Assembly (NCBI GenBank): GCA_034716235.1
Contig: JAYEHH010000032.1
Coordinates: forward strand, 370 to 64,369
Direction of reading: 5' to 3'
Length of the DNA: 64,000 nt
Origin: Patescibacteria group bacterium
GTDB lineage: Bacteria; Patescibacteriota; Minisyncoccia; CAIUEV01; JAHKAQ01
Positions 1 through 54,976 of this stretch are shown piece after piece. The notes beneath the pieces were generated by a model. That model saw nothing but the letters and a program-made list of their open reading frames with translations, was not told the origin of the DNA and made no database searches. The position numbers and the translations under genes were made by a program. Each line of letters begins with the position of its first letter. The first letter of the stretch is position 1.

Positions 1-910
1 GTGTACTTGCCATCGCCTCCGGAATAGGTGCTCCATGAAACATACTGGCAAATCCTTCTTTAATGGCATCATAAGGTAATATGAACCAAGTAGCTCTACC
101 CACTACAGCGGCTACAGTAGTATAGATGATAGCTTTTAATCCATAAGGAATTAAATAAACTGAACCAATTAAAGCTCCAGCTGATCCAGCTACTAAATAT
201 CTGCGATATTCTGTTTTTTTCTCAAATACTCTAATGTCCCAAATATCAGCTTCTAGATCTTGATGAATTTTAGCTAGACTAATAGCTAAATCTTTTTTTA
301 CTTTAGCTAATTTCTTATTAGCTAATTGATAGATAGCTAATCTATTCTTACCTTCTTTAATAGCTTTTTGACTGGTTAGTTTTTGTTGAGCCCCTTCAAA
401 GAAGATAATCAATCCCCAACCTAATAAAGGAGCTTGAAACCAAAATGTAGCTGAAGCAGTAAAATTTAAAAGGACAGCTATAAAACCTAAAACTAAACCC
501 ATTACCATCTTTATATTAGGAGATATTTCTCTCCATTCTTGTAACTGAGCCCTGATCATTCCTTTAAGACCTTGATTCCTTAATTTCTTTTCTTTTTCTT
601 TTCTTAATTTTTCTATTTCATCAAAGATAGTTATTCTAGCTAATAGTTTAATATCATTTTGAATGATTCTTCTATTAGCTCTCTTAAAGTCATTAATCAT
701 TAACTTACGGTATCTATCTAGAGTACCGTAATAGTTTTGTTGAGCTTTAACTAAATATCCTAATCCTTTATCTTTCTTTATGGATTTAAGACCAGTTTTT
801 CTAAGGGTTCCTGTTAAACCAGACTCTGCTTTAAGTTGGGCATCTATGTATTCTGTTCTAGCTTTATTTAATTCTTTGATTCTAGAAGATATTAAAGCAT
901 CGCGTTTCAT
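1..910 (-). CDS. Hypothetical membrane protein, partial (runs off the window start). ATG at 910..908; my by-eye translation MKRDALISSRIKELNKART... stays open to position 1.
   Basis: Minus-strand frame I translated manually. Hydrophobic segment (VMGLVLGFIAVLLNF...GWGLIIFFEG). Absent from the ORF track because it is truncated at the window edge. Confidence 0.45.
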   Translation of the reverse strand, partial: MKRDALISSRIKELNKARTEYIDAQLKAESGLTGTLRKTGLKSIKKDKGLGYLVKAQQNYYGTLDRYRKLMINDFKRANRRIIQNDIKLLARITIFDEIEKLRKEKEKKLRNQGLKGMIRAQLQEWREISPNIKMVMGLVLGFIAVLLNFTASATFWFQAPLLGWGLIIFFEGAQQKLTSQKAIKEGKNRLAIYQLANKKLAKVKKDLAISLAKIHQDLEADIWDIRVFEKKTEYRRYLVAGSAGALIGSVYLIPYGLKAIIYTTVAAVVGRATWFILPYDAIKEGFASMFHGAPIPEAMAST

Positions 911-1062
911 TTTTTTAGTTTTAGTTTTTAGTTATTATTACGTAATAAATTACGTAATAGATTTAATATATTTAAAACATTGATTGTTTGAATTGTAACA
1001 GAGAAATTAGAAAGTTAAAAGTTTTTAAAGTTTTTAAAGCAACAAGGGTTTCTTTTTTTAAT

Positions 1063-1355
1063 GGTCATTCCCGTCCTGCTTGTCACCCCCGCCCCGTATC
1101 AAGTACGGGATAAACTCCAGCGGGAATCCCGAGCAAATTTAGAAGAAACTATTTTGGCAAAGTTTTGTCTAGACGTACCGGGATTCCCGTTTTCCTGCCT
1201 ACCGGCAGGCAGGCACGGGAATGACAGGGAAAAAGGCTGGCTGGCTTGTCTCGCCGAAGGCGGATCACCCTTTGGGTGAGATAATTAGCAATGGACAATT
1301 GATAATGGACAGTGGACAATTGATAATGCCAGCCAGAGGCTGGTCACCCTTTGGG
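1063..1355. repeat. Composite dispersed repeat copy R1: ATTCCCG...CGGGAAT palindromic modules, a GGCTGGCTGG/CCAGCCAG module and ataattgacaatgg word repeats.
   Basis: Nucleotide-level matches to 41614-41843 (partly inverted), 46229-46515, 38531-38598, 27404-27430 and 56143-56350. Preceded by the tandem word gtttttaaag x2 (1021-1040). Confidence 0.75.
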
Positions 1356-1368
1356 TGAAAAATTTCAA

Positions 1369-1932
1369 TTATAATTCCCGCATCATTTTTTTAATTTCTC
1401 GATAATCCGGGATTTCTTGAGCCACTAATTTCCAGAATTTTGGAGAATGATTCAGCTCTTTTAAATGACAAAGTTCATGCACAACCAAATAATCTAAATA
1501 TTTTTGAGGTAAATAAACCACTCGCCAATTAAAATTTAAGTTTCCCATAGAAGAGCAACTCCCCCACCTGGAATGTTGATTCCTAATAGAAACTCGATGG
1601 TATTGAAAATGGTAAAATTTATTAAAATATTCTAGTTTTTTGAGGATTAATCTTCGAGCTCGGTTTTTGTTGTTTAAGTAATTGGTTCGGTTACCTTTTT
1701 GTAAAATTCCGGGAGGTTCCTCTTTGACTTGAGTAATTTTTCTTAGAACCCAATCAGCTTTATTTTTGATAAAATTCTCTAAATAACTTATACGAAACAG
1801 AAATGGTAGAGTAGCGATTAATTCGCCTTTTCTATTTATGGACAATCGCATATATTTTACACCTCGTTTGCGTTTTAAAAAATAAGGGATATTTGTTCCT
1901 TTAAGTTTTATCTGCCTTGCTACAATTTTCAT
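1369..1932 (-). CDS. YgjP-like metal-dependent hydrolase (DUF45 / WLM-type HExxH)
   Basis: C-terminal HELCHLKELNHSPKFW motif typical of DUF45; length 187 aa. Confidence 0.7.
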   Translation of the reverse strand: MKIVARQIKLKGTNIPYFLKRKRGVKYMRLSINRKGELIATLPFLFRISYLENFIKNKADWVLRKITQVKEEPPGILQKGNRTNYLNNKNRARRLILKKLEYFNKFYHFQYHRVSIRNQHSRWGSCSSMGNLNFNWRVVYLPQKYLDYLVVHELCHLKELNHSPKFWKLVAQEIPDYREIKKMMREL

Positions 1933-1989
1933 TTATGAAAACGAAACTATTTAAATTACCAGCTCCTTTTATTTTGATCATCCAAAAAT

Positions 1990-2853
1990 TTATTGATTGT
2001 GCGCCATTTGCTCAATTTTTTGCTTAACAGCTTTAATTATATAATCCGGGGTGGAAGCTCCAGCGCTAATTCCAATAATATCGTTTGGTTTGATTTGTTT
2101 ATTATTAATTTCTGCTGGACTATCAATAAAATAAGTTCGCTTATTAATTTTTTTGGCTATTTGATAAAGTCGGGTTGAATTGGCGCTACTAGGTGATCCA
2201 ATTATTATCATTAAATCTACTTCTTTGGCTAATCTAAAAGCTTCTTTTTGACGATGACGAGTAGCGGTGCAAATAGTATCCAATATTTCTACTTTTAGAT
2301 TAGATTTTTTTAGGCATTTTTTAATTTTTTCGTAATCTTCAATATTTTGAGTGGTTTGAGCAATTAACCCAAATTGTTTTTTATTATTAGTACCTGCCTG
2401 TTTTAAAAAGGAATCTAGCTGAGAAAATTTAGAAATAATAATCCCCTGATTATTTATGGCTGCATTAGTAGCTTGGACTTCAACATGATTCTCATCTCCA
2501 AAAATTAGAACTTGCTTGCCTTCTTGAGCAAGTAGTTTGGCTCTCTCAATAATCTTAGAAACTTTTGGACAGGTAGCATCTACTAAGTTTACTTTTTTAA
2601 AATTAGGCAGGGAAAATATTTTAGGATCACAACCATGAGCGGGAATAATTAAAGTACCCCGCTTTATTGTTTTAGGATCGGTAACTTTATTTATTCCCCA
2701 GGATTTTGTTTCTGCGATGACATGGCTATTGTGTACCAAATCTCCCAGAATTTGGATAGGTGGAGTATATTTTTTATGGTTGGACTTAATAAGGTTGTAA
2801 GCTCTCTTTACTCCTGAGCAAAATCCACCGGAGGTGGCTAAAATTATTTTCAT
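1990..2853 (-). CDS. ispH: 4-hydroxy-3-methylbut-2-enyl diphosphate reductase IspH/LytB
   Basis: MKIILATSGGFCSGVKRA N-terminus and conserved Cys (..HGCDPK.., DATCPKV); 287 aa; 4-nt overlap with the upstream polyprenyl synthase. Confidence 0.85.
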   Translation of the reverse strand: MKIILATSGGFCSGVKRAYNLIKSNHKKYTPPIQILGDLVHNSHVIAETKSWGINKVTDPKTIKRGTLIIPAHGCDPKIFSLPNFKKVNLVDATCPKVSKIIERAKLLAQEGKQVLIFGDENHVEVQATNAAINNQGIIISKFSQLDSFLKQAGTNNKKQFGLIAQTTQNIEDYEKIKKCLKKSNLKVEILDTICTATRHRQKEAFRLAKEVDLMIIIGSPSSANSTRLYQIAKKINKRTYFIDSPAEINNKQIKPNDIIGISAGASTPDYIIKAVKQKIEQMAHNQ

Positions 2854-3923
2854 TTCTTTCTATCTTTAGTCATGTAATCTGCACTTTCTAGAAAAAAATC
2901 ACGAGTTGTTTTTGAAAGTGTAGATTTCAAGATAATATCTTTAGCTTGTACGGATAAATTATTAGCCAATCCATTACAGTAAGTCAAGGCTCCACTGTCT
3001 TTAGCAATTTTCTTAAAGTCGTTCAGCTTTTTCTTGGTGAGTTCTTTGCTTTCTAGAATAGTTTCAATTTTCTTCTTATCTTTAGGTGAAGCATTTTCTA
3101 GAGTTTTTAAAATAATGACCGTTTTTTTGCCCTCTCTTAAATCGGAACCAGCGTCCTTACCTGTTGTTTTTGAATCACTAAAAATTCCTAGAATATCGTC
3201 TCTAATTTGAAAAGCAGTTCCTAATAACACGGCATATTTGCTTAAAACATTTCTTAATTCTGTCTTTCCGTTACCCAACAAAGCTCCCATAAGTAGTGGA
3301 TATTCAATGGTGTATTGGACCGTTTTGTATTTATATATTTTAATAACATCTTTAATGGTAAGGTTTTTTTTAGTGCTTCCTATTACATCCATAATTTCTC
3401 CAGCTTGAGTGTGATTAAACATTGATTGGAATAAGGAACAGGCCTTCATTGTTGGCCGAGCGTCAAATTTACTGCGGTGTAAAACTTTAACAGCAAAAGA
3501 ATAAGCAATGTTTCCGCAAAGAATAGCCAATGATCGTCCAAGCTCTTCTGATTTTTCAACTTTCATCTTCCAGAAAAATTTTTCGTATTCTTTATGAAGA
3601 GTTAATTTTCCTCTTCGCATTTCATCATTATCAATAATGTCATCATGGATGAGTAAGGCACTATGGATTAATTCCATACTCAAAGAGGCGTCCAATATTT
3701 TTTCAGTTCTTCTTTTTCCAGTGGCCAAATAACCATAATACATCAAAATAGAACGAATTCTCTTCCCACCACGTAAAGTAAAATCAGCCACCATTTCAGT
3801 CGCTTCTTTAAGGGTAGGATCTATTTTACTTGCTTCCCGAATTTCTTCCTTAAAGAATTTCCTTAGCCTTTTATTGATTTCCTTCTCCAACTCTTTCATT
3901 ATTTTTTTAAGTTCCGTGCCCAT
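2850..3923 (-). CDS. Polyprenyl diphosphate synthase (IspA/GGPPS family trans-prenyltransferase)
   Basis: First DDxxD motif LIHDDIIDNDEMRRGK and second motif FQIRDDILG. Confidence 0.85.
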   Translation of the reverse strand: MGTELKKIMKELEKEINKRLRKFFKEEIREASKIDPTLKEATEMVADFTLRGGKRIRSILMYYGYLATGKRRTEKILDASLSMELIHSALLIHDDIIDNDEMRRGKLTLHKEYEKFFWKMKVEKSEELGRSLAILCGNIAYSFAVKVLHRSKFDARPTMKACSLFQSMFNHTQAGEIMDVIGSTKKNLTIKDVIKIYKYKTVQYTIEYPLLMGALLGNGKTELRNVLSKYAVLLGTAFQIRDDILGIFSDSKTTGKDAGSDLREGKKTVIILKTLENASPKDKKKIETILESKELTKKKLNDFKKIAKDSGALTYCNGLANNLSVQAKDIILKSTLSKTTRDFFLESADYMTKDRKK

Positions 3924-4107
3924 ATTCGTAAAAGTTATTCTAACTCTATATTATAAAGAATAATTTGAAAAAGTCCACTAAAAAAGCATTAAATTTTTAA
4001 ATTTAGCTACTTGATATTAATTAAAATTTGCCTGAATTCTCTGAGATTGCTATCCTGATTTTAGAACAATGGGATAAAAAGAAGTTAGCAATTTTTAAAG
4101 CAAATTT

Positions 4108-5604
4108 ATGACAATAGAAAAAGTCATAGAGACAGTTAAGCTCAAGAATCAAAATATTGATGAGGATTTTGTGATGAGAGCTTATGAATTTGCTAAAAAA
4201 GCTCATCAGGGGCAAAAAAGAAAAACAGGAGAAGACTACATTCAACATCCTCTAGAAATAGCCTACACCTTGGCCAAACTTGGTTTGGGCTGTAAAACCT
4301 TGGCCAGTGCCCTTCTCCACGATGTACTAGAAGATACAGATTATACTTTAGAACAAATAAAAAAAGAATTTGGTTCAGAGGTGACTTTTATAGTGAAAGG
4401 TCTTACTAAATTAGATGGGATTAAACTTAGAGGTAAAGAAGACGAACATTATTTAGAGAATTTACGCCGAATGTTTTTGGCGATGGGAGCTGATATTAGG
4501 ACAATTATAGTTAAGCTGGTTGATCGTTATCATAATATGCTTACTCTGGACGCTTTATCACCAGATAAACAATATCAAATTGCTAAAGAAACTATGGAAA
4601 TTTATGCTCCTATTGCTAATAGATTAGGAATAGGGGAAATAAAGGGAGCTTTAGAAGATTTGGCTTTTCAATATATGGATCCCAAGAAATATAACGAGGT
4701 TGATAAAATGACCAAAGAAAAATATAAGGAAAGAATGATCCTCATTAATAAAATTATAAAAGAAATTAAAAAAATACTTGGGAAAGAGAAAATAAAGATA
4801 ATTGATATCCATGGACGAGCTAAACATTTATATCGACTTTACCAAAAGCTCAAAAAGCATAACATGGACATTGAAGAAGTTTATGATTTAGTAGCAATTC
4901 GTATTATTGTTCCCGAGATTAAGGATTGTTACGAAACTCTCGGAATAATTCACAAGCATTATCGACCATTAATCAAAAGAATTAAAGATTTTATTTCTTT
5001 ACCAAAACCCAACGGTTATCGATCTCTTCATACTACGGTCTTTACTCTTCAGGGAGATCTGATTGAGATTCAAATAAGGAATCAAGAGATGCATGAAGAA
5101 GCCGAATTTGGGATTGCTGCTCATTGGATTTATTCAGATGAAAAAGTTTTACATAGGTTCTTCCCTGGCCATAGAAAGAAAAGAACAAAAGATTTAAAGA
5201 AACTGAAAAAAGAATTGGCCTGGACCAAACAACTTCAATCATGGCAAGAAGAGGTGGGCTCTGACTCAGAGGAATTTTTTAAAAGTTTAAAAATTGATTT
5301 TCTAGAAAATAGGATTTTTGCTTTTACTCCAGATGGAGACGTTATAGATTTACCCGAAGGAGCAACCCCTATTGATTTCGCTTATGAAGTGCATACAGAG
5401 ATAGGTAACTCGGCCATTGGAGCAAAAGCTGACGATGAAGCGGTACCTTTAAATTACACTATTCAAAATGGTGAAGTAATTAAAATTATAACTCAAAAAG
5501 GAAAAATAACCCCCGATTCCGAATGGTTAGAATTTGTTAGAACTGGTCGTGCTAAAATGAAGATAAGAGAAGTTTTAAGAAAACAGAAACAAGCCGGTTT
5601 CTAA
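4108..5604 (+). CDS. RelA/SpoT-family (p)ppGpp synthetase/hydrolase, short form (HD + synthetase + TGS, no ACT)
   Basis: HD-domain motif (..ALLHDVLEDT..), synthetase region (YRSLHTTV), TGS-like segment near the C-terminus; only 498 aa. Confidence 0.8.
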   Translation: MTIEKVIETVKLKNQNIDEDFVMRAYEFAKKAHQGQKRKTGEDYIQHPLEIAYTLAKLGLGCKTLASALLHDVLEDTDYTLEQIKKEFGSEVTFIVKGLTKLDGIKLRGKEDEHYLENLRRMFLAMGADIRTIIVKLVDRYHNMLTLDALSPDKQYQIAKETMEIYAPIANRLGIGEIKGALEDLAFQYMDPKKYNEVDKMTKEKYKERMILINKIIKEIKKILGKEKIKIIDIHGRAKHLYRLYQKLKKHNMDIEEVYDLVAIRIIVPEIKDCYETLGIIHKHYRPLIKRIKDFISLPKPNGYRSLHTTVFTLQGDLIEIQIRNQEMHEEAEFGIAAHWIYSDEKVLHRFFPGHRKKRTKDLKKLKKELAWTKQLQSWQEEVGSDSEEFFKSLKIDFLENRIFAFTPDGDVIDLPEGATPIDFAYEVHTEIGNSAIGAKADDEAVPLNYTIQNGEVIKIITQKGKITPDSEWLEFVRTGRAKMKIREVLRKQKQAGF

Positions 5605-5606
5605 TT

Positions 5607-6536
5607 TTAGTCTTTGCTAACTAGCTGGATCAATCTATCCAAATCATTCTCATTATAATATTCTAAAATAACTTTACCTCCTTTTTTACTCGTCCTAATT
5701 TGTACTTTTAGACCCAAAGCGTCAGAAAGAATTTTTTCCCTCTGAGCCATCATTGGATTAGAACCGGTGCTTAATTTTCTTTGATGAGATTTCACGTTTA
5801 CCTTGCTGGTAATATTTTCAACGTCTCTCACCGTTAAATTGTCTCTCACCGTTTTTTTATATAAAGCCAATTGAGCTTCTGGGTCGTCTAGGGCTGAAAG
5901 AATTTTTGCATGCCCCTCCCCTATTTTATTATCAATCAGACCTTGCTGAATTTCTTCGGGAAGTCTCAAAAAACGTAATAAATTAGCGATGCTTGATCGA
6001 CTTCGTTTAATTTTTTGCGAAATGTCCTCTTGAGTTAATTGAAAATCTTTGATTAACCTTTGATACGCCTTCCCCTCCTCAATAGGATTAAGGTTTTCCC
6101 TTTGGATATTTTCTGTTAAAGCTAATTCTAGTTTTGATAATTCATCTACTTCTCTTATTATAGCCGGTATTTCTTTTAACCCGGCCAGCTTAGAAGCTTT
6201 AAATCTGCGTTCACCAGCGATTATTTCATAAATTCCAGCTTCTTTTTTGGCTACAACAATGGGCTGCAGAAGTCCATATTCCTTGATAGATTCCATTAAA
6301 GAATCTAGGGGTTCTTCTTTAAAGTTTTGTCGAGGCTGGTTAATATTGGGGATAATTTTTCTCAATTCAATCAAAATTACTCCATTCTTATTCTCTAGAG
6401 ACGCTGGAGAATCTATTCCATCGGTATTTACAACAGAAATTTCTGTTTCTCCTGTTTCCGATTTTTGGGCGAAATCCTGTTTAATTTTATCAGGGATTAA
6501 AGCGGAGAGCCCTCTACCTAAATTTTCTGATTCCAT
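5607..6536 (-). CDS. parB: Chromosome partitioning protein ParB/Spo0J
   Basis: ParB box GERRFKASKLAGL and IPAIIRE motif; located downstream of parA. Confidence 0.85.
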   Translation of the reverse strand: MESENLGRGLSALIPDKIKQDFAQKSETGETEISVVNTDGIDSPASLENKNGVILIELRKIIPNINQPRQNFKEEPLDSLMESIKEYGLLQPIVVAKKEAGIYEIIAGERRFKASKLAGLKEIPAIIREVDELSKLELALTENIQRENLNPIEEGKAYQRLIKDFQLTQEDISQKIKRSRSSIANLLRFLRLPEEIQQGLIDNKIGEGHAKILSALDDPEAQLALYKKTVRDNLTVRDVENITSKVNVKSHQRKLSTGSNPMMAQREKILSDALGLKVQIRTSKKGGKVILEYYNENDLDRLIQLVSKD

Positions 6537-48375: not shown

Positions 48376-48777
48376 TTACTCCTTATCAGGCAATCTATCA
48401 TCTTTTTTTCTTTGATAATAAGTATTCTTATTTAAACATCTGTTTATAATATTTTCCATGTGCCAATAAGTGTAATTGCCATATCTAAAATAAATCTGTT
48501 TTGTTTTGTAAAAATAATCCTCGTATCCTGACTGGTCAATGTAATTAGCAAGCTCTAAGTATAATTTGTTATCAACTTTTTCTTGGACAATATATTCATG
48601 GGGCCATGTTTTAGCATAAGTTTTTGCAGGCGTCCAATTAGAATTTTTAATAAATAATTTTAAATTATTGGGGAGTAGTACTCTATCAAACATCGCCTTT
48701 ATTTTTTTACTATGAAGAAATATTAAAACCTTTTTGATTGTAGCTATAGTATTGTTGATTACTTTAGTTTCATCCAT
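48376..48777 (-). CDS. Hypothetical aromatic-rich small protein, convergent with the GmrSD-like gene
   Basis: 133-aa ORF, no recognised motif. Confidence 0.35.
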   Translation of the reverse strand: MDETKVINNTIATIKKVLIFLHSKKIKAMFDRVLLPNNLKLFIKNSNWTPAKTYAKTWPHEYIVQEKVDNKLYLELANYIDQSGYEDYFYKTKQIYFRYGNYTYWHMENIINRCLNKNTYYQRKKDDRLPDKE

Positions 48778-49095: not shown

Positions 49096-52014
49096 ATGAG
49101 AGTTAATATCAAGGAAATCAGGAGAATAATTAAATCTGATGTTATTAAGCCTAGAATTGAAGAATATTTACAGAAAAGAAAAAGTGGAGACGAGCAGCAA
49201 TGGAACGAGGAATATAAATGGGATCCAAAAATATTGCCTGCAACACATAAGGAATTTATCAAGGAAAGAGACATTCTTAAAAAAATTGAAATTCTTCAAA
49301 AAAATAATCCAAACGAAGGATCCTTTGTGAGTTATATGGACTTGGACGATCTCAATAAATTTGCTAAGGAAAAAACAAAGCAAGCCACAAAGTTGATGGA
49401 AAACTTATTGAATGGAAAAAAGAATATTGCTAAACGCATTGATTATTTTAGGGATGAGACGAAAAAAGTGGATGAAAAAATTAAATTAGGAACACCCTTA
49501 TTTGGTTACATTATGGCGGTATTCAATTCCAGTAAATATCCAACTTATAAAAATTCAACCTTTATGGCTCTCAAAAAGCTCATTGGAAAAAGACAAGAAT
49601 GGAGTTCTATGAGTGTTGGCGAGAAATATCAAACATTTACTGACCTGTGCCATGAAATGGGCAAATTGCTGAAGCCAGAACTTGAAACTGTAAATATCAG
49701 AGGTATTGAGGTCAAGCCAGGAAGGACTGCTCTGGATGGTCAAGACTTTTTCTATATTCTTGAAGATCGTTATAATAGAGAGAGATATTTCCCCGAACTT
49801 GTTAAATTTCTTGAACAAGCCAAGGCAAGCAATCTTACAACAAAGCAATACCGAAAGGATTATATGAATTGTAAAGTGAGGATAAGTTTTGGAAAAGTAA
49901 GCTCTGCACAAACACCCTGGATTAGTTTTTTATCCGGTGACAATAAATTACAGAAGGGAATTTATCCAGTCTTTCTTTTTTATAAAAGTATAAATAAATT
50001 ATTTCTAGCATATGGTATAAGTGAAATAAGTGAACCCGAACAAATTTGGAACATTGTTGGAAAAGAAACAATTGAAGATTATTTTATTGAAAATTTCAAC
50101 TCGGAGCCAGAGAGATATGGCAGTTCTTATGTTTATAAAGTATACGATGTGAAAAACATTGATAATTTAAATCAAGAACAAATGGAAAATGACTTGAAAA
50201 ACATAATTAATGAATATAAAAAACAACTTGAAGAAACTCCAAAAATTCAATACTGGACAATTTCTCCGGGGGAAGATGCAAAGCACTGGGAGGAGTTCTA
50301 TCAAAAAGGGATCATTGGAGTCGGCTGGGATAAAACAAAAGATCTCTTACAATATAAAAATAAAAAAGAAATTCAAAAGGTTGCGAAAAACTTATTTGGA
50401 TTAAAAACTAATGCCAGCAATACTGCCCAAGCTTGTTTGGATTTTTCTAGAACAATGAGAATTGGGGATATTTTAATTGTCAAAAAGGGAATTCATGAAT
50501 TGGTCGGCTATGGAAAGGTAACTTCAGATTATATTTATGATGCAAGGAGGAAGACATATAAACACATACGAAATGTGATGTGGATTAAAAAGGGAAATTG
50601 GAAGATAGATAAAGAGATTATTCATCCTGCATTAAAAACTTTAACTAACATAACTCCGTATGAAGGTTATGCCCAAGAATTATTGGGCATAATGGACGAA
50701 AGTAATATTGATGGAAAAAATTACTGGTGGATTAATGCAAATCCAAAAATTTGGAATTTAACAGAGGCGGAAGTCGGTTCCAAACAAATATATACAAGCC
50801 ATAATGAGGCCAAGAATCCCAGAAGAATTTATAGTTATTTTAAAGAGGTTAAGCCGGGCGACATTATGTTTGGATATATAACAAGTCCTGACAAACAAAT
50901 TACTTCAATATGCAAAATAACCAAAGGGTTATATGAGAACAAAGAGGGGGAAGTGATTGAATTTGAAAAAACTGAGACTTTACAAAATCCAATTTTGTGG
51001 AATGAATTGAAAAATGAAGAAAGTTTGAAAAATTGCGAACCAATTAAGAACAATCAAGGAAGTTTGTTTAAAATAAGCAAAGAAGAATATGAAACCATTA
51101 GATATTTGATTGATGAGAAAAATATTTTCACGAAAGAAAAAATTGAAAAATATATAAAAAAGGATGCTCTAGACAAATTATTTATTTCAGAAAATGAATT
51201 TGATAATATAGCCCAAAATATTGAAAGAAACAAAAATATCATTCTGCAAGGCCCTCCCGGAGTTGGCAAAACTTTTCTTGCAAAAAGGTTGGCTTATTAT
51301 TTGATTGGATACAAAGACGTAAACAAGGTACAATCTATCCAATTTCATCAATCATATTCATATGAAGATTTCATGCAAGGTTACAGGCCCAATGAAAAAG
51401 GAAAATTTGATCTTGTTAATGGAATATTTTTCAGATTTTGTCAGAAAGCTAAAAATGATCCAAACAATAAGTATTTCTTCTTGATAGATGAAATAAATAG
51501 AGGAAATCTGAGCAAAATTTTTGGTGAATTAATGATGCTTATTGAAAAAGATAAACGGGGTAAAGATTTTGCTATACCTTTAACATATTCCCAAGATGAC
51601 AGAGAAACATTTTATGTGCCAGAAAATGTTCATTTGATTGGGACTATGAACACAGCTGATAAATCACTTGCGATGGTAGACTATGCTTTGCGAAGAAGAT
51701 TTAATTTTATTTTTCTGAAACCAAAATTTAATAACAGCTTTAGTTCATTCCTAGAAAATATGGGAGTTAAAAAGATTATTATTAAAGCGATAGTTGAAAA
51801 AATAAGCAAACTAAATGAGATGATAATTAATGATGATAATAATCTTGGAAAAGGATATCAAATTGGTCATAGTTTTTTCTGTCCTCAGAGAAAAAGTAAA
51901 TATGACGAAGAATGGTTTAAGAATATTGTCAAATACGAAATTGAACCATTGCTCGAGGAGTATTGGTTTGATAGTGAGAAAAAATTTAATGAAGCGAAGA
52001 ATTTATTAAACTGA
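49096..52014 (+). CDS. mcrB: McrB-like GTP-specific AAA+ motor with a long N-terminal extension: DUF3578-like (MrcB-N) module plus two EVE/PUA-like modules
   Basis: AAA+/GTPase motifs GPPGVGKTF, FFLIDEINRGN, GTMNTADKS (NTAD signature of McrB), RRRF. N-terminal VRISFGKVSSAQTPWISFLSGDNKLQKGIYPVFLFY fits the DUF3578 pattern. An EVE-like segment runs YWWINANPKIW...GDIMFGYITSPDKQITSICKI...; an earlier similar module runs YWTISPGEDAKHWEEF...GDILIVKKG. Confidence 0.8.
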   Translation: MRVNIKEIRRIIKSDVIKPRIEEYLQKRKSGDEQQWNEEYKWDPKILPATHKEFIKERDILKKIEILQKNNPNEGSFVSYMDLDDLNKFAKEKTKQATKLMENLLNGKKNIAKRIDYFRDETKKVDEKIKLGTPLFGYIMAVFNSSKYPTYKNSTFMALKKLIGKRQEWSSMSVGEKYQTFTDLCHEMGKLLKPELETVNIRGIEVKPGRTALDGQDFFYILEDRYNRERYFPELVKFLEQAKASNLTTKQYRKDYMNCKVRISFGKVSSAQTPWISFLSGDNKLQKGIYPVFLFYKSINKLFLAYGISEISEPEQIWNIVGKETIEDYFIENFNSEPERYGSSYVYKVYDVKNIDNLNQEQMENDLKNIINEYKKQLEETPKIQYWTISPGEDAKHWEEFYQKGIIGVGWDKTKDLLQYKNKKEIQKVAKNLFGLKTNASNTAQACLDFSRTMRIGDILIVKKGIHELVGYGKVTSDYIYDARRKTYKHIRNVMWIKKGNWKIDKEIIHPALKTLTNITPYEGYAQELLGIMDESNIDGKNYWWINANPKIWNLTEAEVGSKQIYTSHNEAKNPRRIYSYFKEVKPGDIMFGYITSPDKQITSICKITKGLYENKEGEVIEFEKTETLQNPILWNELKNEESLKNCEPIKNNQGSLFKISKEEYETIRYLIDEKNIFTKEKIEKYIKKDALDKLFISENEFDNIAQNIERNKNIILQGPPGVGKTFLAKRLAYYLIGYKDVNKVQSIQFHQSYSYEDFMQGYRPNEKGKFDLVNGIFFRFCQKAKNDPNNKYFFLIDEINRGNLSKIFGELMMLIEKDKRGKDFAIPLTYSQDDRETFYVPENVHLIGTMNTADKSLAMVDYALRRRFNFIFLKPKFNNSFSSFLENMGVKKIIIKAIVEKISKLNEMIINDDNNLGKGYQIGHSFFCPQRKSKYDEEWFKNIVKYEIEPLLEEYWFDSEKKFNEAKNLLN

Positions 52015-52019
52015 TTTTT

Positions 52020-53057
52020 ATGGAGATACCTATAATAAATATATATTACCTACTTTGTTATGCTTGGGATAAACTTGAAGAAAAAGATGTTGTTAACGTA
52101 AAAGAAGAAGATCACACTAAGTTACTTGATCTTTTTGCAAAGATATTAATTAACGGAATGAATCATCTAATCAGGAAAGGATTGGACAGAAATTACATTG
52201 ATATCAAAGAAGATTCAAAGAGAATTAAGGGAAAGATTAATTTCAATGAAACACTGAAAAGGAACTTGTTGGTACGATGTGAAATTAGTTGCGAATTCGA
52301 CGATTTTAGTTACAACATTCTTCACAACAGAATTATTAAAACAGTGATTGGAGGATTAGTTAGAAATGATGAGGTGGATCAGGAGCTGAGGGACGAATTG
52401 AATAAAATCTATCGATTATTGAAAGAGATTGATGAGATAAGGCTTTCCTCAAAAATATTTAATGCTGTAAAATTAAACAGAAATAATTACTTTTATGATT
52501 TTCTGATCAAGGTATGTAGGCTGATATATGAAAATTATTTAATCACGGAAGAAACGGGCAAGGGGAAATTTAGAGATTTTATAAGAGACGAAGTAAAAAT
52601 GAGAATGCTCTTCGAAGATTTTGTTAGGAATTTTTATAGAAAAGAACAAAACGAATTTTCTGTAACAAGGGAATTGATTGCATGGAATGTTAAGGCTGAG
52701 AATGATGAAGATATGAGTTATATGCCGAGAATGGAAACCGATATATCGCTAAAATCAAAAAGTAAAAAAATAATAGTTGATACAAAATATTATAAAGAGG
52801 CCATTAAGGGTCAATATAAGAATAAAGAAAAGTTAATATCCAATAATTTATATCAAATGTTTGCCTACATAAATAATATAGAAAACAAAGGAGGTCTAAA
52901 TAAAAAATGTACTGGAATATTACTTTACCCAACAGTTAAAAAAGATTTGGATTTAAAATATAAAATACCAAATCATAACTTACAAATTAAAACAATAAAT
53001 CTAAATCAAGAATGGAAAAAAATTCATAAAGACTTATTAAGTGTAATTATGACTTGA
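52020..53057 (+). CDS. mcrC: McrC-like PD-(D/E)xK nuclease partner of McrB
   Basis: Starts 5 nt after the mcrB stop; McrC signature D-x-K in IIVDTKYYK with upstream acidic residues and QMFAY. Confidence 0.7.
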   Translation: MEIPIINIYYLLCYAWDKLEEKDVVNVKEEDHTKLLDLFAKILINGMNHLIRKGLDRNYIDIKEDSKRIKGKINFNETLKRNLLVRCEISCEFDDFSYNILHNRIIKTVIGGLVRNDEVDQELRDELNKIYRLLKEIDEIRLSSKIFNAVKLNRNNYFYDFLIKVCRLIYENYLITEETGKGKFRDFIRDEVKMRMLFEDFVRNFYRKEQNEFSVTRELIAWNVKAENDEDMSYMPRMETDISLKSKSKKIIVDTKYYKEAIKGQYKNKEKLISNNLYQMFAYINNIENKGGLNKKCTGILLYPTVKKDLDLKYKIPNHNLQIKTINLNQEWKKIHKDLLSVIMT

Positions 53058-53131: not shown

Positions 53132-54349
53132 ATGCAACAATTTTCTCATTCAAAATTACAAACCTATGAAAGATGTCCCCTGCAATATAAGCTCCAATAC
53201 CTCACCAATCTAAAGCCGGAGCAGGAAGAGACAATAGAAGCCTTTGTGGGTAGCCGGGTCCATGAGACTCTGGAACTTCTTTATCGTGATCTACTGCGAA
53301 CAAAACTAAATTCTTTAGCTGATCTTTTAAAGTTCTATGATAAAATTTGGAGAGTAAACTGGAGCAATGACATAGTTATCAATAATAAAGAATTTAAAAA
53401 GAAACATTACTTTGATCTTGGAAAAAAATGTATTAAAAATTATTATGAAAAATATAGCCCTTTTGATCAGGATCAAACAATTGGAATTGAGAAGAGGATT
53501 AATTTACAATGGGGAGACATTGGAATAGTGGGATACATTGACCGTTTAGCTAGAGACAGCCAGGGTATTTATTCTATCCATGATTATAAAACGGGTGCCA
53601 TCATGGAACAGAAGTACGCAGATCAAGATCGTCAGCTAGCCTTGTATTCAATTGCCGTTAAGGAAAACTTTAGAGAGGCCAAAGAGGTAAGGTTAATTTG
53701 GCATTTTGTAGCTTATGGCGAAGATGTTATCTCGAAACGGACAAATAAGGAATTGGCTAAGCTAAAAAATGAAATGCTGTCCCTTATTGAAGAAATTAAT
53801 CTTGCAGAAAAAGAAGATAATTTTCCAGCCAAAGAAACTAAATGTGAATGGTGCGGATATTGGCAGTATTGCCCAAAGAAAAAGCATTTATTCAAAACAG
53901 AAAAACTTCCAAAAAATAAATACCTACAAGATAGTGGAGTAAAACTAGCAAAAAAGTATATTAATTTATCACAACAAAGAACTGTCATAAACAAACGAGC
54001 TAAAACTAAGGGGGAAATAATTAAGCAAGAAATGCTAAAGATTCAAGAAGCTATCCTAAAATATACCCAGAAACATAAAATAGATGTCTTGGCGGGAGAA
54101 AAAATGCTTGTAGCTATTAATAAGAGTAAGAACTATACCTTCCCTACAAAAACTACTGACATTGAAAAATACACTGAATTGGAAAATTTATTGAAAAAAA
54201 GTAAGTACTGGAACGGTGTATCTTCCGTCAATGCCCAAAAAGTTAGTCAATTATTGGAAGATGATGGGATTGACAGTAGATTAAAGCAGAAAATTATTGC
54301 CCTTGCTCCACTTGAAGAATCTACTAACTTATCAATCAGAAAAAAGTAA
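53132..54349 (+). CDS. Cas4/RecB-like PD-(D/E)xK nuclease with 4-Cys cluster and ~150-aa C-terminal extension
   Basis: N-terminal SKLQTYERCPLQYKLQY, GYIDRL, IHDYKTG (D..D-x-K), QLALYSIA (QxxxY), CEWCGYWQYC. Confidence 0.7.
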   Translation: MQQFSHSKLQTYERCPLQYKLQYLTNLKPEQEETIEAFVGSRVHETLELLYRDLLRTKLNSLADLLKFYDKIWRVNWSNDIVINNKEFKKKHYFDLGKKCIKNYYEKYSPFDQDQTIGIEKRINLQWGDIGIVGYIDRLARDSQGIYSIHDYKTGAIMEQKYADQDRQLALYSIAVKENFREAKEVRLIWHFVAYGEDVISKRTNKELAKLKNEMLSLIEEINLAEKEDNFPAKETKCEWCGYWQYCPKKKHLFKTEKLPKNKYLQDSGVKLAKKYINLSQQRTVINKRAKTKGEIIKQEMLKIQEAILKYTQKHKIDVLAGEKMLVAINKSKNYTFPTKTTDIEKYTELENLLKKSKYWNGVSSVNAQKVSQLLEDDGIDSRLKQKIIALAPLEESTNLSIRKK

Positions 54350-54910
54350 ATGGAGCTTCTAGAGAAAACCATCAAGCATATAGAAAAAAAGAAAAGGGAT
54401 AATTCTAATAAAAAAGAGCTATTGGCAAACAACAGACATCCTAAATCTGCCCATTATTATAAAAAGGAATGGTCATTTATTGAGTTTGTACCAGCTAGAG
54501 AAAATATTACCTATCAGTTACAGTATTTAGAGTATATGACCAATTTATACAATGACTACCAAATGTATTTAACGATTGAATCTTTACATTGCAAGAACAT
54601 GATGATTACCATTGCCTCAATAATGGAATGTGCCCTCTATGACCTCTTGTATCAGTTAGCCAGAAAAAGGTCAGATATTGGTTTTGATGAAAGAGAAGAT
54701 TTTTTAGCAATGATTGATTTAGGGTTTCGGGGAGGTTTACTTAATGAACAAATGAAAAATTTGCTACATGAGCTTCGGAAAGTTAGAAATTTTGTGCATA
54801 TTTCTAATTTGGAGCATAAAGAATACGAAGCTTATGATATTGAGCAAGTAAACAACTATATTATACTTTTAGATAATTTTAAGGATAGAGTTAGGGAGAA
54901 GATTAAATGA
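54350..54910 (+). CDS. Hypothetical protein translationally coupled (TAAATG) to the upstream nuclease; possible HEPN-like Rx4-6H motif
   Basis: C-terminal LHELRKVRNFVHI fits R-x6-H; the start codon abuts the upstream stop. Confidence 0.3.
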   Translation: MELLEKTIKHIEKKKRDNSNKKELLANNRHPKSAHYYKKEWSFIEFVPARENITYQLQYLEYMTNLYNDYQMYLTIESLHCKNMMITIASIMECALYDLLYQLARKRSDIGFDEREDFLAMIDLGFRGGLLNEQMKNLLHELRKVRNFVHISNLEHKEYEAYDIEQVNNYIILLDNFKDRVREKIK

Positions 54911-54950
54911 AAATAATTAGGGTTATACTCCCCTGCTGCATTCTTTCTTA

Positions 54951-54976
54951 AAAGAATTACGTAATTAATTACTTAC
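54951..54976. repeat. Repeat copy R8 (aagaattacgtaattaattacttacc module)
   Basis: Identical 26-mer at 56013-56038; variant at 46491-46515. Confidence 0.7.

Follow-up and report, generated by a model that had tools for sequence, protein, structure and literature searches.

A candidate accessory cassette in a Patescibacteria type IV restriction island: a Cas4/AddB-type nuclease gene abutted by a HEPN-fold gene

The genomes of Patescibacteria (CPR) are tiny, the organisms do not grow alone in culture, and their immune repertoires are poorly charted. A stretch of 64,000 nucleotides from a Patescibacteria group bacterium (GenBank assembly GCA_034716235.1, contig JAYEHH010000032.1, positions 370 to 64,369 of the forward strand; hereafter the window) contains a gene for a Cas4-like nuclease, here called nucA, which is followed directly by a gene for a small protein. 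A first-pass annotation had taken the two for a self-contained two-gene defence module. The question raised by this locus is whether the two genes form a system of their own, whether they serve the restriction genes beside them, or whether they are independent neighbours.

The locus and its two genes

Gene order around the pair is TsaD, a GmrSD_N/BrxU-like protein of 605 aa, a 133-aa protein encoded on the minus strand, McrB, McrC, nucA, the HEPN-fold gene, a zincin-like protein of 296 aa and a class-I aaRS (Table 1). McrB and McrC were matched by their NCBIfam models at 8.5e-124 and 5.1e-108, respectively, with Pfam identifying MrcB_N, EVE and AAA_5 in McrB and McrBC in McrC. The 605-aa DUF262 protein matched Pfam GmrSD_N (4.8e-33) and PADLOC HEC-05 (1.1e-29), the latter far better than PD-T4-2_A (2e-5). 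GC content is 30.1% in the island, compared with 34.7% across the window, and the defence-island setting that had been proposed is borne out by this low value and by the GmrSD_N/BrxU-like, McrB and McrC neighbours. The numbers of their homologues show that both ORFs of the pair are genuine genes that did not arise by chance. The junction between them reads AAG TAA ATG, in which stop and start abut at 0 nt instead of overlapping as the first-pass annotation had it. In a scan for promoters and terminators, promoter-like sites numbered 45 where 39 were expected, and terminators were absent. No CRISPR-like array was found within the window, and the annotated neighbours of the pair are not cas genes.

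Table 1. Features of the nucA-HEPN locus (positions are those of the window)
Feature	Position (nt)	Strand	Remarks
nucA	53132..54349	+	405-aa RecB/Cas4/AddB-type PD-(D/E)xK nuclease, 4-Cys (Fe-S) signature
nucA nuclease domain	53132-53902		residues 1-257
nucA conserved C-terminal tail	53903-54346		residues 258-405; long helix 269-315 and alpha/beta domain
HEPN-fold gene	54350..54910	+	186 aa; family without Pfam, NCBIfam or PADLOC model
HEPN motif LHELRKVRNFVHI, R143-x6-H150	54776..54799	+	
Acidic partner residue E93 of the HEPN protein	54626-54628	+	in helix 2
McrB (972 aa) and McrC (345 aa), type IV restriction	49096..53057	+	74 nt 5' of nucA
GmrSD_N (DUF262)/BrxU-like (HEC-05) protein, 605 aa	46526..48343	+	
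Right-hand edge of conserved nucA-HEPN block	54911..54976	.	sister contig L092 diverges past 54976

The product of nucA carries all of the RecB/Cas4 motifs first ascribed to it, at the places given, namely C15, G134-Y-I-D137-R-L, D151-Y-K153, Q168-x3-Y172 and C238-x2-C241-x5-C247, and all of these are invariant across 37 homologues of 37-80% identity. These comprise the D, D/ExK and QxxxY elements together with the one N-terminal and three C-terminal Cys that define the RecB/Cas4/AddB (Pfam PDDEXK_1) group. By sequence and predicted fold, the protein is a RecB/Cas4/AddB-type Fe-S nuclease that appears active, as its earlier description as Cas4-like had suggested. Its C-terminal tail of ~150 aa, previously described as unassigned, indeed has no Pfam match, but is conserved throughout the nucA family, with G269, L272, P338, W360 and S364 retained in the 37 homologues.

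For the 186-aa protein, nothing reached threshold in Pfam, NCBIfam, PADLOC or PHROGs, and a sequence profile search of the PDB gave no match; its assignment came from fold comparison alone. Two fold-search methods applied to a confident predicted structure returned almost exclusively HEPN proteins, and the modelled protein has the fold that characterises the HEPN superfamily. Together with a conserved Arg and His at the HEPN RNase site, these searches support the HEPN fold that had been suspected for it.

Conservation of the pair and separability of its genes

Conservation of the two genes as a unit had been put forward as a check, and the abutting pair proved to be co-conserved in one clade. 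In 10 of 10 metagenome loci where the HEPN protein is at least 65% identical to that of the window and upstream DNA is present, nucA lies immediately 5' of the HEPN gene, with gaps of 0-34 nt. Further contigs also carry the pair, and the nucA-linked HEPN proteins form one clade. The two genes are kept together while the flanks differ at every locus; in the Patescibacteria clade these flanks include GmrSD, McrBC, HNH, NERD, recombinase and R-M genes and IS elements, which vary between genomes. A 98%-identical sister contig (L092) matched the window by blastn over positions 54118-54976 alone, and beyond this block REase-like, MTase-like and DUF262+HNH genes replace the zincin-like gene. The nucA gene is found without its partner, however. 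Many family members lack a HEPN gene, including homologues at 63-65% identity, and in one homologue a NERD gene occupies the HEPN position. A scan of genome contigs, which used a single nucA sequence as query, returned three loci, and nine distant nucA-like loci were found in IMG/VR. Thus nucA and the HEPN gene are conserved as a unit within a single clade of Patescibacteria but do not make up an obligate two-gene system.

The HEPN protein has 50 close homologues and 440 profile matches, the figure of at least 440 family representatives being a count at 50% clustering. In 62 of 69 loci of this family, the gene upstream points in the same direction as the HEPN gene, compared with 47 of 70 for the gene downstream (Fisher p = 0.0017); the upstream gene is both co-directional and within 100 nt in 53/69, compared with 26/70 for the downstream gene (p = 2.9e-6). 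The upstream neighbours fall into at least 41 families, some of them non-nuclease or unannotated. When 65 upstream neighbours, each of at least 100 aa, were scanned, at least 34 were recognisable DNA nucleases (PDDEXK_1, 11; GmrSD, 9; TdeIII, 4; DUF2779, 4; PDDEXK_3, 2; NucS_C, 2; NERD, 1; Vsr, 1). Partner genes are swapped among close HEPN relatives, and solitary members of the family exist (L007, P0182). No fused nuclease domain was present in the longer family members (250-484 aa) that were scanned, and the family is absent from IMG/VR, where a phage-borne origin was considered. Members of the HEPN family thus behave as promiscuous tail genes that follow DNA nucleases. With nucA occurring alone at 63-65% identity and the HEPN gene behind at least 41 families, the notion of a self-contained two-gene module had to be given up.

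We read the locus, with a probability of roughly 0.45, as a co-transcribed two-gene accessory cassette that adds a DNA nuclease and a back-up HEPN RNase to the type IV restriction of the island. Counting against this reading are the x3 spacing of the conserved Arg and His, the nucA homologues at 63-65% identity without a HEPN gene, the homologue in a housekeeping-like context, the lack of an evident antitoxin-like partner, the solitary HEPN members and the 41 neighbour clusters that the HEPN family follows; how the protein could bind each of its partners specifically is difficult to envisage. A rather unlikely but serious alternative is that two independent single-gene systems happen to be neighbours, with the HEPN gene acting on its own, as a toxin or abortive-infection gene that usually lacks a promoter and hitch-hikes on the 3' ends of other defence-island genes, with nucA working alone or with GmrSD, and with the pairing in one clade reflecting vertical co-inheritance of a compact block. 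The wide variation and swapping of partners, the solitary HEPN members and the nucA homologues without HEPN are consistent with such independence, and single-gene HEPN defences are documented (HEC-08, DARNA). However, the upstream polarity, tight spacing and nuclease-enriched partners exceed simple island co-residence, and the nucA-HEPN pair remains intact amid differing flanks.

An unlikely but more far-reaching version would make the HEPN family a universal plug-in guard RNase that could be appended at the 3' side of nearly all DNA-cleaving defence genes and set off by a generic trigger. The signal would be the action or failure of the nuclease, sensed for instance as ssDNA or DNA ends, instead of partner-specific contacts. 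Its partners would include GmrSD, TdeIII, DUF2779, NucS-like, Cas4-like and other proteins, and in Patescibacteria the arrangement would amount to a three-tier chain, from type IV restriction enzyme to Fe-S end-processing nuclease to HEPN suicide RNase.

Settings of the nuclease and the HEPN active site

Many members of the nucA family are located directly 3' of GmrSD-type restriction genes, and nucA follows type IV enzymes in L014, L090, L091/L095, L102, L106 and L001. In this Patescibacteria lineage, the gene directly upstream of nucA is repeatedly a modification-dependent restriction gene, encoding a GmrSD/BrxU-like, McrBC or HNH protein. Residues 4-605 of the 605-aa island protein are 53% identical by blastp to a 771-aa protein of L091, and at L091/L095 this GmrSD_N counterpart ends at 6000 and the nucA homologue starts at 6001, the two genes abutting. 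A Pfam GmrSD_C match is missing in four of six nucA-linked GmrSD_N proteins; those proteins match the BrxU-like HEC-05 model, end to end in L063, and therefore their C-termini may be divergent nucleases. The idea of a split GmrSD, in which a DUF262-only sensor would use nucA as its nuclease in trans, is thus a weak lead. McrBC is absent beside the pair in L001, L004, L014 and L102-L105 and present beside it only in the window, and a reading of the pair as extra McrBC components was ruled out because McrBC is not conserved with it. A role as CRISPR Cas4 was also rejected, since TIGR00372 gave 45.8 bits against a cutoff of 65 and neither cas genes nor an array were found.

It is decidedly unlikely that nucA is a housekeeping nuclease, processing DNA ends for repair or recombination in small-genome lineages that lack RecBCD/AddAB, to which the HEPN gene is attached as a selfish addiction-type toxin or a stress RNase, the two not being an anti-phage module. 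The very large size of the family (2047 homologues found), its full-length occurrence in Patescibacteria, archaea, Chlamydiae and Elusimicrobia, and its nearest solved relatives, which are the repair nucleases AdnAB, Dna2, AddB and RecB, would all suit a housekeeping role. A housekeeping-like context, of the kind that had been named as a possible objection to the defence reading, was encountered in one 42%-identical homologue (L093), where the gene comes after pstSCAB-phoU and near a UvrA-like gene. In the Patescibacteria clade, however, there is no conserved housekeeping synteny; the flanks are variable defence and mobile genes, and the GC content of the island lies below that of its surroundings.

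In the HEPN protein, none of the residues R143, R146, N147, H150 and E93 varies among 31 close homologues. Among 76 divergent relatives, R146 is kept in 73, N/D at position 147 in 71, H150 in 75 and E93 in 73, while R143 is found in only 43. The R-x6-H motif noted at first is present, as LHELRKVRNFVHI with R143-x6-H150, but it depends on R143, and the spacing conserved in the family is R-x3-H. The conserved site is R146-[N/D]147-x2-H150 (Rx3H), which falls outside the canonical Rx4-6H. Its place, where helix 3 ends, is that of the active site in HEPN proteins (cf. PMC3710099), and the acidic residue expected of HEPN proteins is supplied by E93 in helix 74-106 (helix 2). The protein has a conserved N-terminal extension of 45 residues and is probably an RNase. 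That it instead regulates the upstream nuclease, as an adaptor without catalysis or by binding nucleotides, like the nucleotidyltransferase substrate-binding HEPN domains, is very improbable: although the x3 spacing is non-canonical, the non-catalytic HI0074, kanamycin NTase and sacsin are among its top structural neighbours, and several HEPN families lack activity (PMC3710099), R146, H150 and E93 are kept at the canonical site in 73-75 of the 76 relatives with the N/D after Arg that is the pattern of catalytic HEPNs, and one adaptor for 41 unrelated partners is unlikely.

Known systems and proposed function

The first-pass annotation could place the pair in no named system, which holds insofar as no PADLOC or NCBIfam model covers it, but a link between HEPN RNases and restriction nucleases is already established. 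Linkage to R-M systems has been described for at least 16 clades of HEPN proteins, for which a PrrC-type guard model was proposed (Anantharaman et al. 2013, PMC3710099). Like these, the HEPN gene of the window is small, co-directional with restriction endonuclease genes and not methylases, and placed in a defence island. Unlike PrrC/RloC, its product has no ABC ATPase domain, has R-x3-H spacing and is partnered by a Cas4/AddB-type Fe-S nuclease. DUF4145 has been reported in operons with R-M and McrBC (PMC3710099), and of the profile matches suggested earlier, that of the nuclease to the PDDEXK_1 family was obtained, but the HEPN protein gave no match to DUF4145 (PF13643) at E <= 1, and three of its 76 relatives match weakly, at best at 2e-4.

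PD-T4-2 is a validated two-gene anti-phage system of DUF262 and HEPN proteins (Vassallo et al. 2022, as presented in PMC10952713 and PMC12065111). As in PD-T4-2, many GmrSD_N(DUF262)-HEPN pairs in that order occur in the present HEPN family, and the island of the window has a DUF262 protein whose orthologue abuts nucA; the PADLOC PD-T4-2_A model matches the DUF262 proteins of the window and related loci weakly. However, the HEPN protein of the window was matched by none of the PADLOC PD-T4-2 models and does not belong to that system, the HEPN protein of PD-T4-2 is listed in those accounts as of RiboL-PSP type (PF18735), and the DUF262 and HEPN genes of the window have McrBC and a Cas4-like nuclease between them.

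A HepT-MntA-type toxin-antitoxin system was rejected, as an MNT nucleotidyltransferase gene was adjacent neither in the window nor in any locus read. The NTP-transferase family was absent from the 65 upstream neighbours scanned, and no antitoxin-like partner of the HEPN gene was evident. The HepT-like_2 model gave E 0.15 and 12.6 bits (cutoff 27) on the HEPN protein, which, unlike HepT (Rx4H), has the additional conserved N-terminal extension. The nuclease, in contrast to Cas4, AddB, AdnAB and ACE1, is a stand-alone protein of 405 aa with its own C-terminal helix and alpha/beta domain and no helicase; cas1 and cas2 are absent near nucA, and no pAgo gene was seen there. HEC-08 is a stand-alone HEPN defence that depends on its motif histidine, and DARNA / PD-T7-3 is an ssDNA-activated HEPN tRNase (bioRxiv 10.64898/2026.02.22.705581), a single protein of ~456 aa in which the motif is R117-x4-H122 and DNA is sensed by a large C-terminal domain. 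The HEPN protein of the window, unlike DARNA, has 186 aa and no DNA-sensing domain, and no homology between the two was detected.

For the accessory cassette that we favour, we infer a toxic RNase with a trigger, contact with the nuclease and a function in defence. The nucA product would process or degrade the DNA ends made by the upstream restriction enzymes, while the HEPN protein would dimerise into a metal-independent RNase through E93 and R146-N147-x2-H150 and may act as a second-line, growth-arresting (abortive-infection) effector. Following the logic of PrrC/EcoprrI, it would be restrained as long as the DNA-targeting arm is neither inhibited nor overwhelmed. Alternatively, its trigger might be the DNA products of nucA; DARNA, being set off by a DNA species, gives a concrete way for a DNA nuclease to activate a downstream HEPN protein.

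Our best reading is that the family and the combination are new but that the theme is known, and that the pair is not a new kind of system. The theme is that of restriction paired with a back-up RNase, because the same HEPN family stands behind dozens of restriction-type nucleases. We see no categorically new biology in it, and the functional claims are inferences. The HEPN family is recognised by no current annotation library and would provide a new model for defence-system catalogues. Its approximately 40 partner families form a natural test set for how restriction and a back-up RNase are coupled, be it by inhibition specific to each partner or by a generic signal of the DNA-damage type. From the recurrent adjacency of GmrSD and a following Cas4-like gene, it would appear that lineages lacking RecBCD/AddAB possess an end-degrading nuclease of their own to accompany restriction.

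Gene content and setting of the island

The first-pass annotation had proposed a Cas4-like nuclease gene (nucA) coupled to a gene for a small HEPN-like RNase, and both open reading frames were found, on the + strand, at the coordinates it had given. Judged by sequence, both are genuine genes, with 2047 database relatives for nucA and, for the small protein, 50 close relatives, the top one from a Patescibacteria MAG, and 440 profile matches among 1.84 billion cluster representatives. The junction, which had been described as a stop/start overlap, reads AAG TAA ATG, and thus the genes abut with no spacer and no overlap. The pair forms the end of a ~9.4-kb defence island, as had been proposed, set between housekeeping genes, namely SecA, SecDF, UvrA, ClpB and TsaD on its left and a class-I aminoacyl-tRNA synthetase on its right. 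The GC content of the island is 30.1% vs 34.7% for the window, in which no CRISPR array was found.

Features of the island and of one homologous locus
Feature	Position	Strand	Remarks
GmrSD_N/BrxU-like protein, 605 aa	46526-48343	+	Pfam GmrSD_N 4.8e-33; PADLOC HEC-05 1e-29
133-aa ORF	48376-48777	-	Between GmrSD-like gene and McrB
McrB, 972 aa	49096-52014	+	MrcB_N and EVE reader domains, AAA_5 GTPase
McrC			Between McrB and nucA
nucA, 405 aa	53132-54349	+	Position as in first-pass annotation
Small protein (HEPN), 186 aa	54350-54910	+	Position as in first-pass annotation
Zincin-like protein, 296 aa	55032-55922	+	HExxH (HELAH) motif; downstream of HEPN gene
GmrSD_N + SLFN_AlbA_2 protein, 771 aa	3685-6000 (locus L091/L095)		Directly abuts nucA homologue

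A Pfam GmrSD_C (DUF1524) match was detected neither in the 605-aa protein of the window nor in four of the six nucA-linked GmrSD_N proteins, and for the 133-aa ORF neither Pfam, PADLOC and PHROGs nor any of the loci compared offered a match. McrB is unusually long, with several putative modified-base readers stacked ahead of AAA_5 (MrcB_N, residues 239-376; a PADLOC PDC-S02-like segment, 386-499; EVE, 542-669), and its residues 80-193 resemble the N-terminus of an HNH protein encoded upstream of nucA in the homologous locus L001. The zincin-like protein, with weak matches to SprT-like (7.8e-4), MPTase-PolyVal (0.17) and phrog_7245, annotated as an anti-restriction protein (0.0027), may be a metallopeptidase of ArdC-like or regulatory type.

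Linkage of nucA and the HEPN gene

Of 80 metagenome loci with a gene for the small protein, nucA lay immediately upstream, with gaps of 0-34 nt, in 10/10 of those where the HEPN was at least 65% identical to that of the window and upstream DNA was present. The pair was also found on contigs of 906 and 47 kb, on several others and on a sister contig (98-99% identical), and the nucA-linked HEPNs formed a single clade in a neighbour-joining tree. The flanks of the pair varied at every locus: HNH, Bro-N or GmrSD genes or IS elements preceded it, and the genes that followed it were unrelated. The sister contig L092 (Patescibacteria MAG130, 98% identical) shares just 54118-54976 with the window, divergence beginning 66 nt past the HEPN stop (54911-54976 being the shared edge), which places a strain-level recombination breakpoint at this site; on its right side (860-4853) lie an R-M-like pair, coding for a REase-like protein of 286 aa and a TNPPF-motif methyltransferase-like one of 366 aa, then a 195-aa gene and a DUF262+HNH gene of 388 aa. 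The varying flanks and this divergence together indicate that nucA-HEPN moves as a block excluding the zincin-like gene, which showed no linkage to the pair in other loci.

Each gene also occurred without the other. Homologues of nucA at 63-65% identity had no HEPN within 6 kb (L090, L091/L095), another lay in a recombinase-bearing element, and on the Moranbacteria contig L098 (5010-5744) a 244-aa NERD gene occupied the HEPN's slot, 5 nt after nucA; a second NERD gene was seen upstream in this locus. The HEPN gene behaves as a promiscuous tail gene: members of the clade at 40-51% identity follow a wide range of other genes, and partner exchange was seen even among closely related HEPNs. Across the family, the upstream neighbour was co-directional in 62/69 loci and the downstream one in 47/70 (Fisher p = 0.0017), and a co-directional neighbour lay within 100 nt upstream in 53/69 vs downstream in 26/70 (Fisher p = 2.9e-6). 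The upstream neighbours fell into 41 blastp clusters, and at least 34 of the 65 scanned for domains (those of at least 100 aa) were recognisable DNA nucleases (PDDEXK_1 11, GmrSD_N 9, TdeIII 4, DUF2779 4, PDDEXK_3 2, NucS_C 2, NERD 1, Vsr 1), with NYN, AIPR and other HEPNs as further families. Thus the proposed two-gene unit held only partly, since the pair is co-conserved and mobile as a block in one clade but, as far as gene neighbourhoods indicate, neither gene requires the other family-wide. It is possible, if doubtful, that nucA and HEPN are separate single-gene systems inherited together, as the partner diversity and the existence of solitary HEPN members would suggest; the polarity, tight spacing and nuclease enrichment argue against this.

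In the Patescibacteria clade, the gene that immediately precedes nucA is usually one of modification-dependent restriction: GmrSD_N in L014 (gap of 1 nt), L090 (12 nt) and L091/L095 (0 nt), the HNH gene in L001 and McrBC in the window. In L102 (3816-4917), an IS element (rve integrase and HTH_Tnp_1 ORFs, opposite strand) separates a GmrSD_N gene from the nucA-HEPN pair; the related L103-L105 keep a transposase ORF beside nucA. In L106 (3279-6218, an IMG/VR contig classed as viral), a GmrSD_N gene, preceded by a DUF5677 gene, overlaps the start of a nucA-like gene of 35% identity, so the adjacency persists at low identity, possibly on a mobile element. The GmrSD-like protein of the window shares 53% identity along its entire length with the 771-aa protein of L091. 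An older GmrSD-nucA order probably took up McrBC and the 133-aa ORF by insertion, or else the genes swapped positions at a hot spot.

The nuclease and the small protein

Every nuclease motif listed in the first-pass annotation was present in nucA (C15; GYID137RL; D151-Y-K153; Q168xxxY172; C238xxC241x5C247) and invariant in 37 homologues (37-80% identity). Residues 3-248 matched Pfam PDDEXK_1 (1.7e-32), the family profile matched the AdnA/AdnB nuclease domains in the PDB (1.8e-6), and the Cas4 equivalog model scored 45.8 bits, under its 65-bit cutoff. The motifs and these two matches identify nucA, at the sequence level, as a free-standing Fe-S nuclease of the RecB/Cas4/AddB type whose active site is intact. 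It is an ordinary representative of a known nuclease superfamily and carries an uncharacterised domain at its C-terminus. This tail, previously unassigned, is not junk, judging by its conservation throughout the family (37 homologues); it is predicted to form a helix of 47 residues and, after it, a small alpha/beta domain, for which structure comparison still gave no convincing match. Full-length homologues (~400 aa) were found in archaea, Chlamydiae and Elusimicrobia, and one at 42% identity (L093, a 621-kb contig) lies behind pstSCAB-phoU, near a UvrA-like gene. Such breadth and context would suit a housekeeping repair nuclease to which HEPN is attached as a selfish gene, but the variable, island-type flanks in Patescibacteria make this quite improbable.

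The small protein had no significant model in Pfam, NCBIfam, PADLOC or PHROG (closest HepT-like_2, E 0.15), and its family profile found zero matches among PDB sequences. Its AF2 model, built with 31 homologues, was confident (pLDDT 86, pTM 0.84) and all-helical, and in independent agreement the best 29 Foldseek matches were all HEPN, with weak E-values (best 3e-3). The proposed HEPN identity agrees with the modelled fold, with RNase activity as a prediction. The proposed R-x6-H motif (R143...H150) is present in LHELRKVRNFVHI, but R143 was retained in just 43/76 divergent relatives; E93 was conserved in 73/76, R146 in 73/76, N or D at 147 in 71/76 and H150 in 75/76. E93 lies in helix 2, and R146-N147-x2-H150 where helix 3 ends and passes into the loop; both coincide with the HEPN active site as described, which combines an acidic helix-2 residue with an Arg-polar...His motif (PMC3710099). 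Fold and site are therefore HEPN-like, but the conserved spacing, Rx3H, falls short of the textbook Rx4-6H by one residue. Weak matches to Pfam DUF4145 or HepT in a few distant relatives place the family within the HEPN clan as a branch not yet catalogued; no members were found in IMG/VR viral contigs. On the model, the small protein has a HEPN fold and belongs to a family absent from Pfam, NCBIfam and PADLOC, and a non-catalytic adaptor, for which the odd Arg-His spacing is the sole argument, is very unlikely in view of the near-universal E/R/H conservation.

A proposed layered reading of the island

At least 16 HEPN clades have been tied to R-M systems, with a guard logic proposed by analogy to PrrC-EcoprrI (PMC3710099), and PD-T4-2 is a validated DUF262 + HEPN system (PMC10952713; PMC12065111). 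A Cas4-like nuclease followed by HEPN is, as claimed, no named system, but HEPN RNases joined in operons to restriction nucleases have been known in principle since 2013, with experimentally validated examples. The nucA island would share the layered logic of a DNA arm plus HEPN with PrrC-EcoprrI and PD-T4-2, and we infer such an arrangement as its best-supported reading. Type IV restriction enzymes would cut modified invader DNA; nucA, as an end-dependent AddB/Cas4-type Fe-S nuclease, would process or destroy the resulting ends; and the HEPN protein, a latent RNase, would halt translation if the DNA arm were blocked or swamped. Patescibacteria-type lineages are generally not known to carry RecBCD/AddAB. 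What the analysis shows is folds, conserved residues and gene order; catalysis, toxicity, the trigger, complex formation and an anti-phage effect are putative.

The HEPN trigger could be generic, for example DNA products, or act through partner-specific inhibition; with ~40 partner families for one HEPN family, a generic trigger seems at least as likely. DARNA, a HEPN tRNase activated by ssDNA, offers a candidate model for such a trigger. Unlikely as we still judge it, the HEPN protein may be a plug-in guard of universal use, set off by a generic signal derived from DNA, which would complete a three-tier chain of restriction, end-nuclease and RNase in CPR bacteria.
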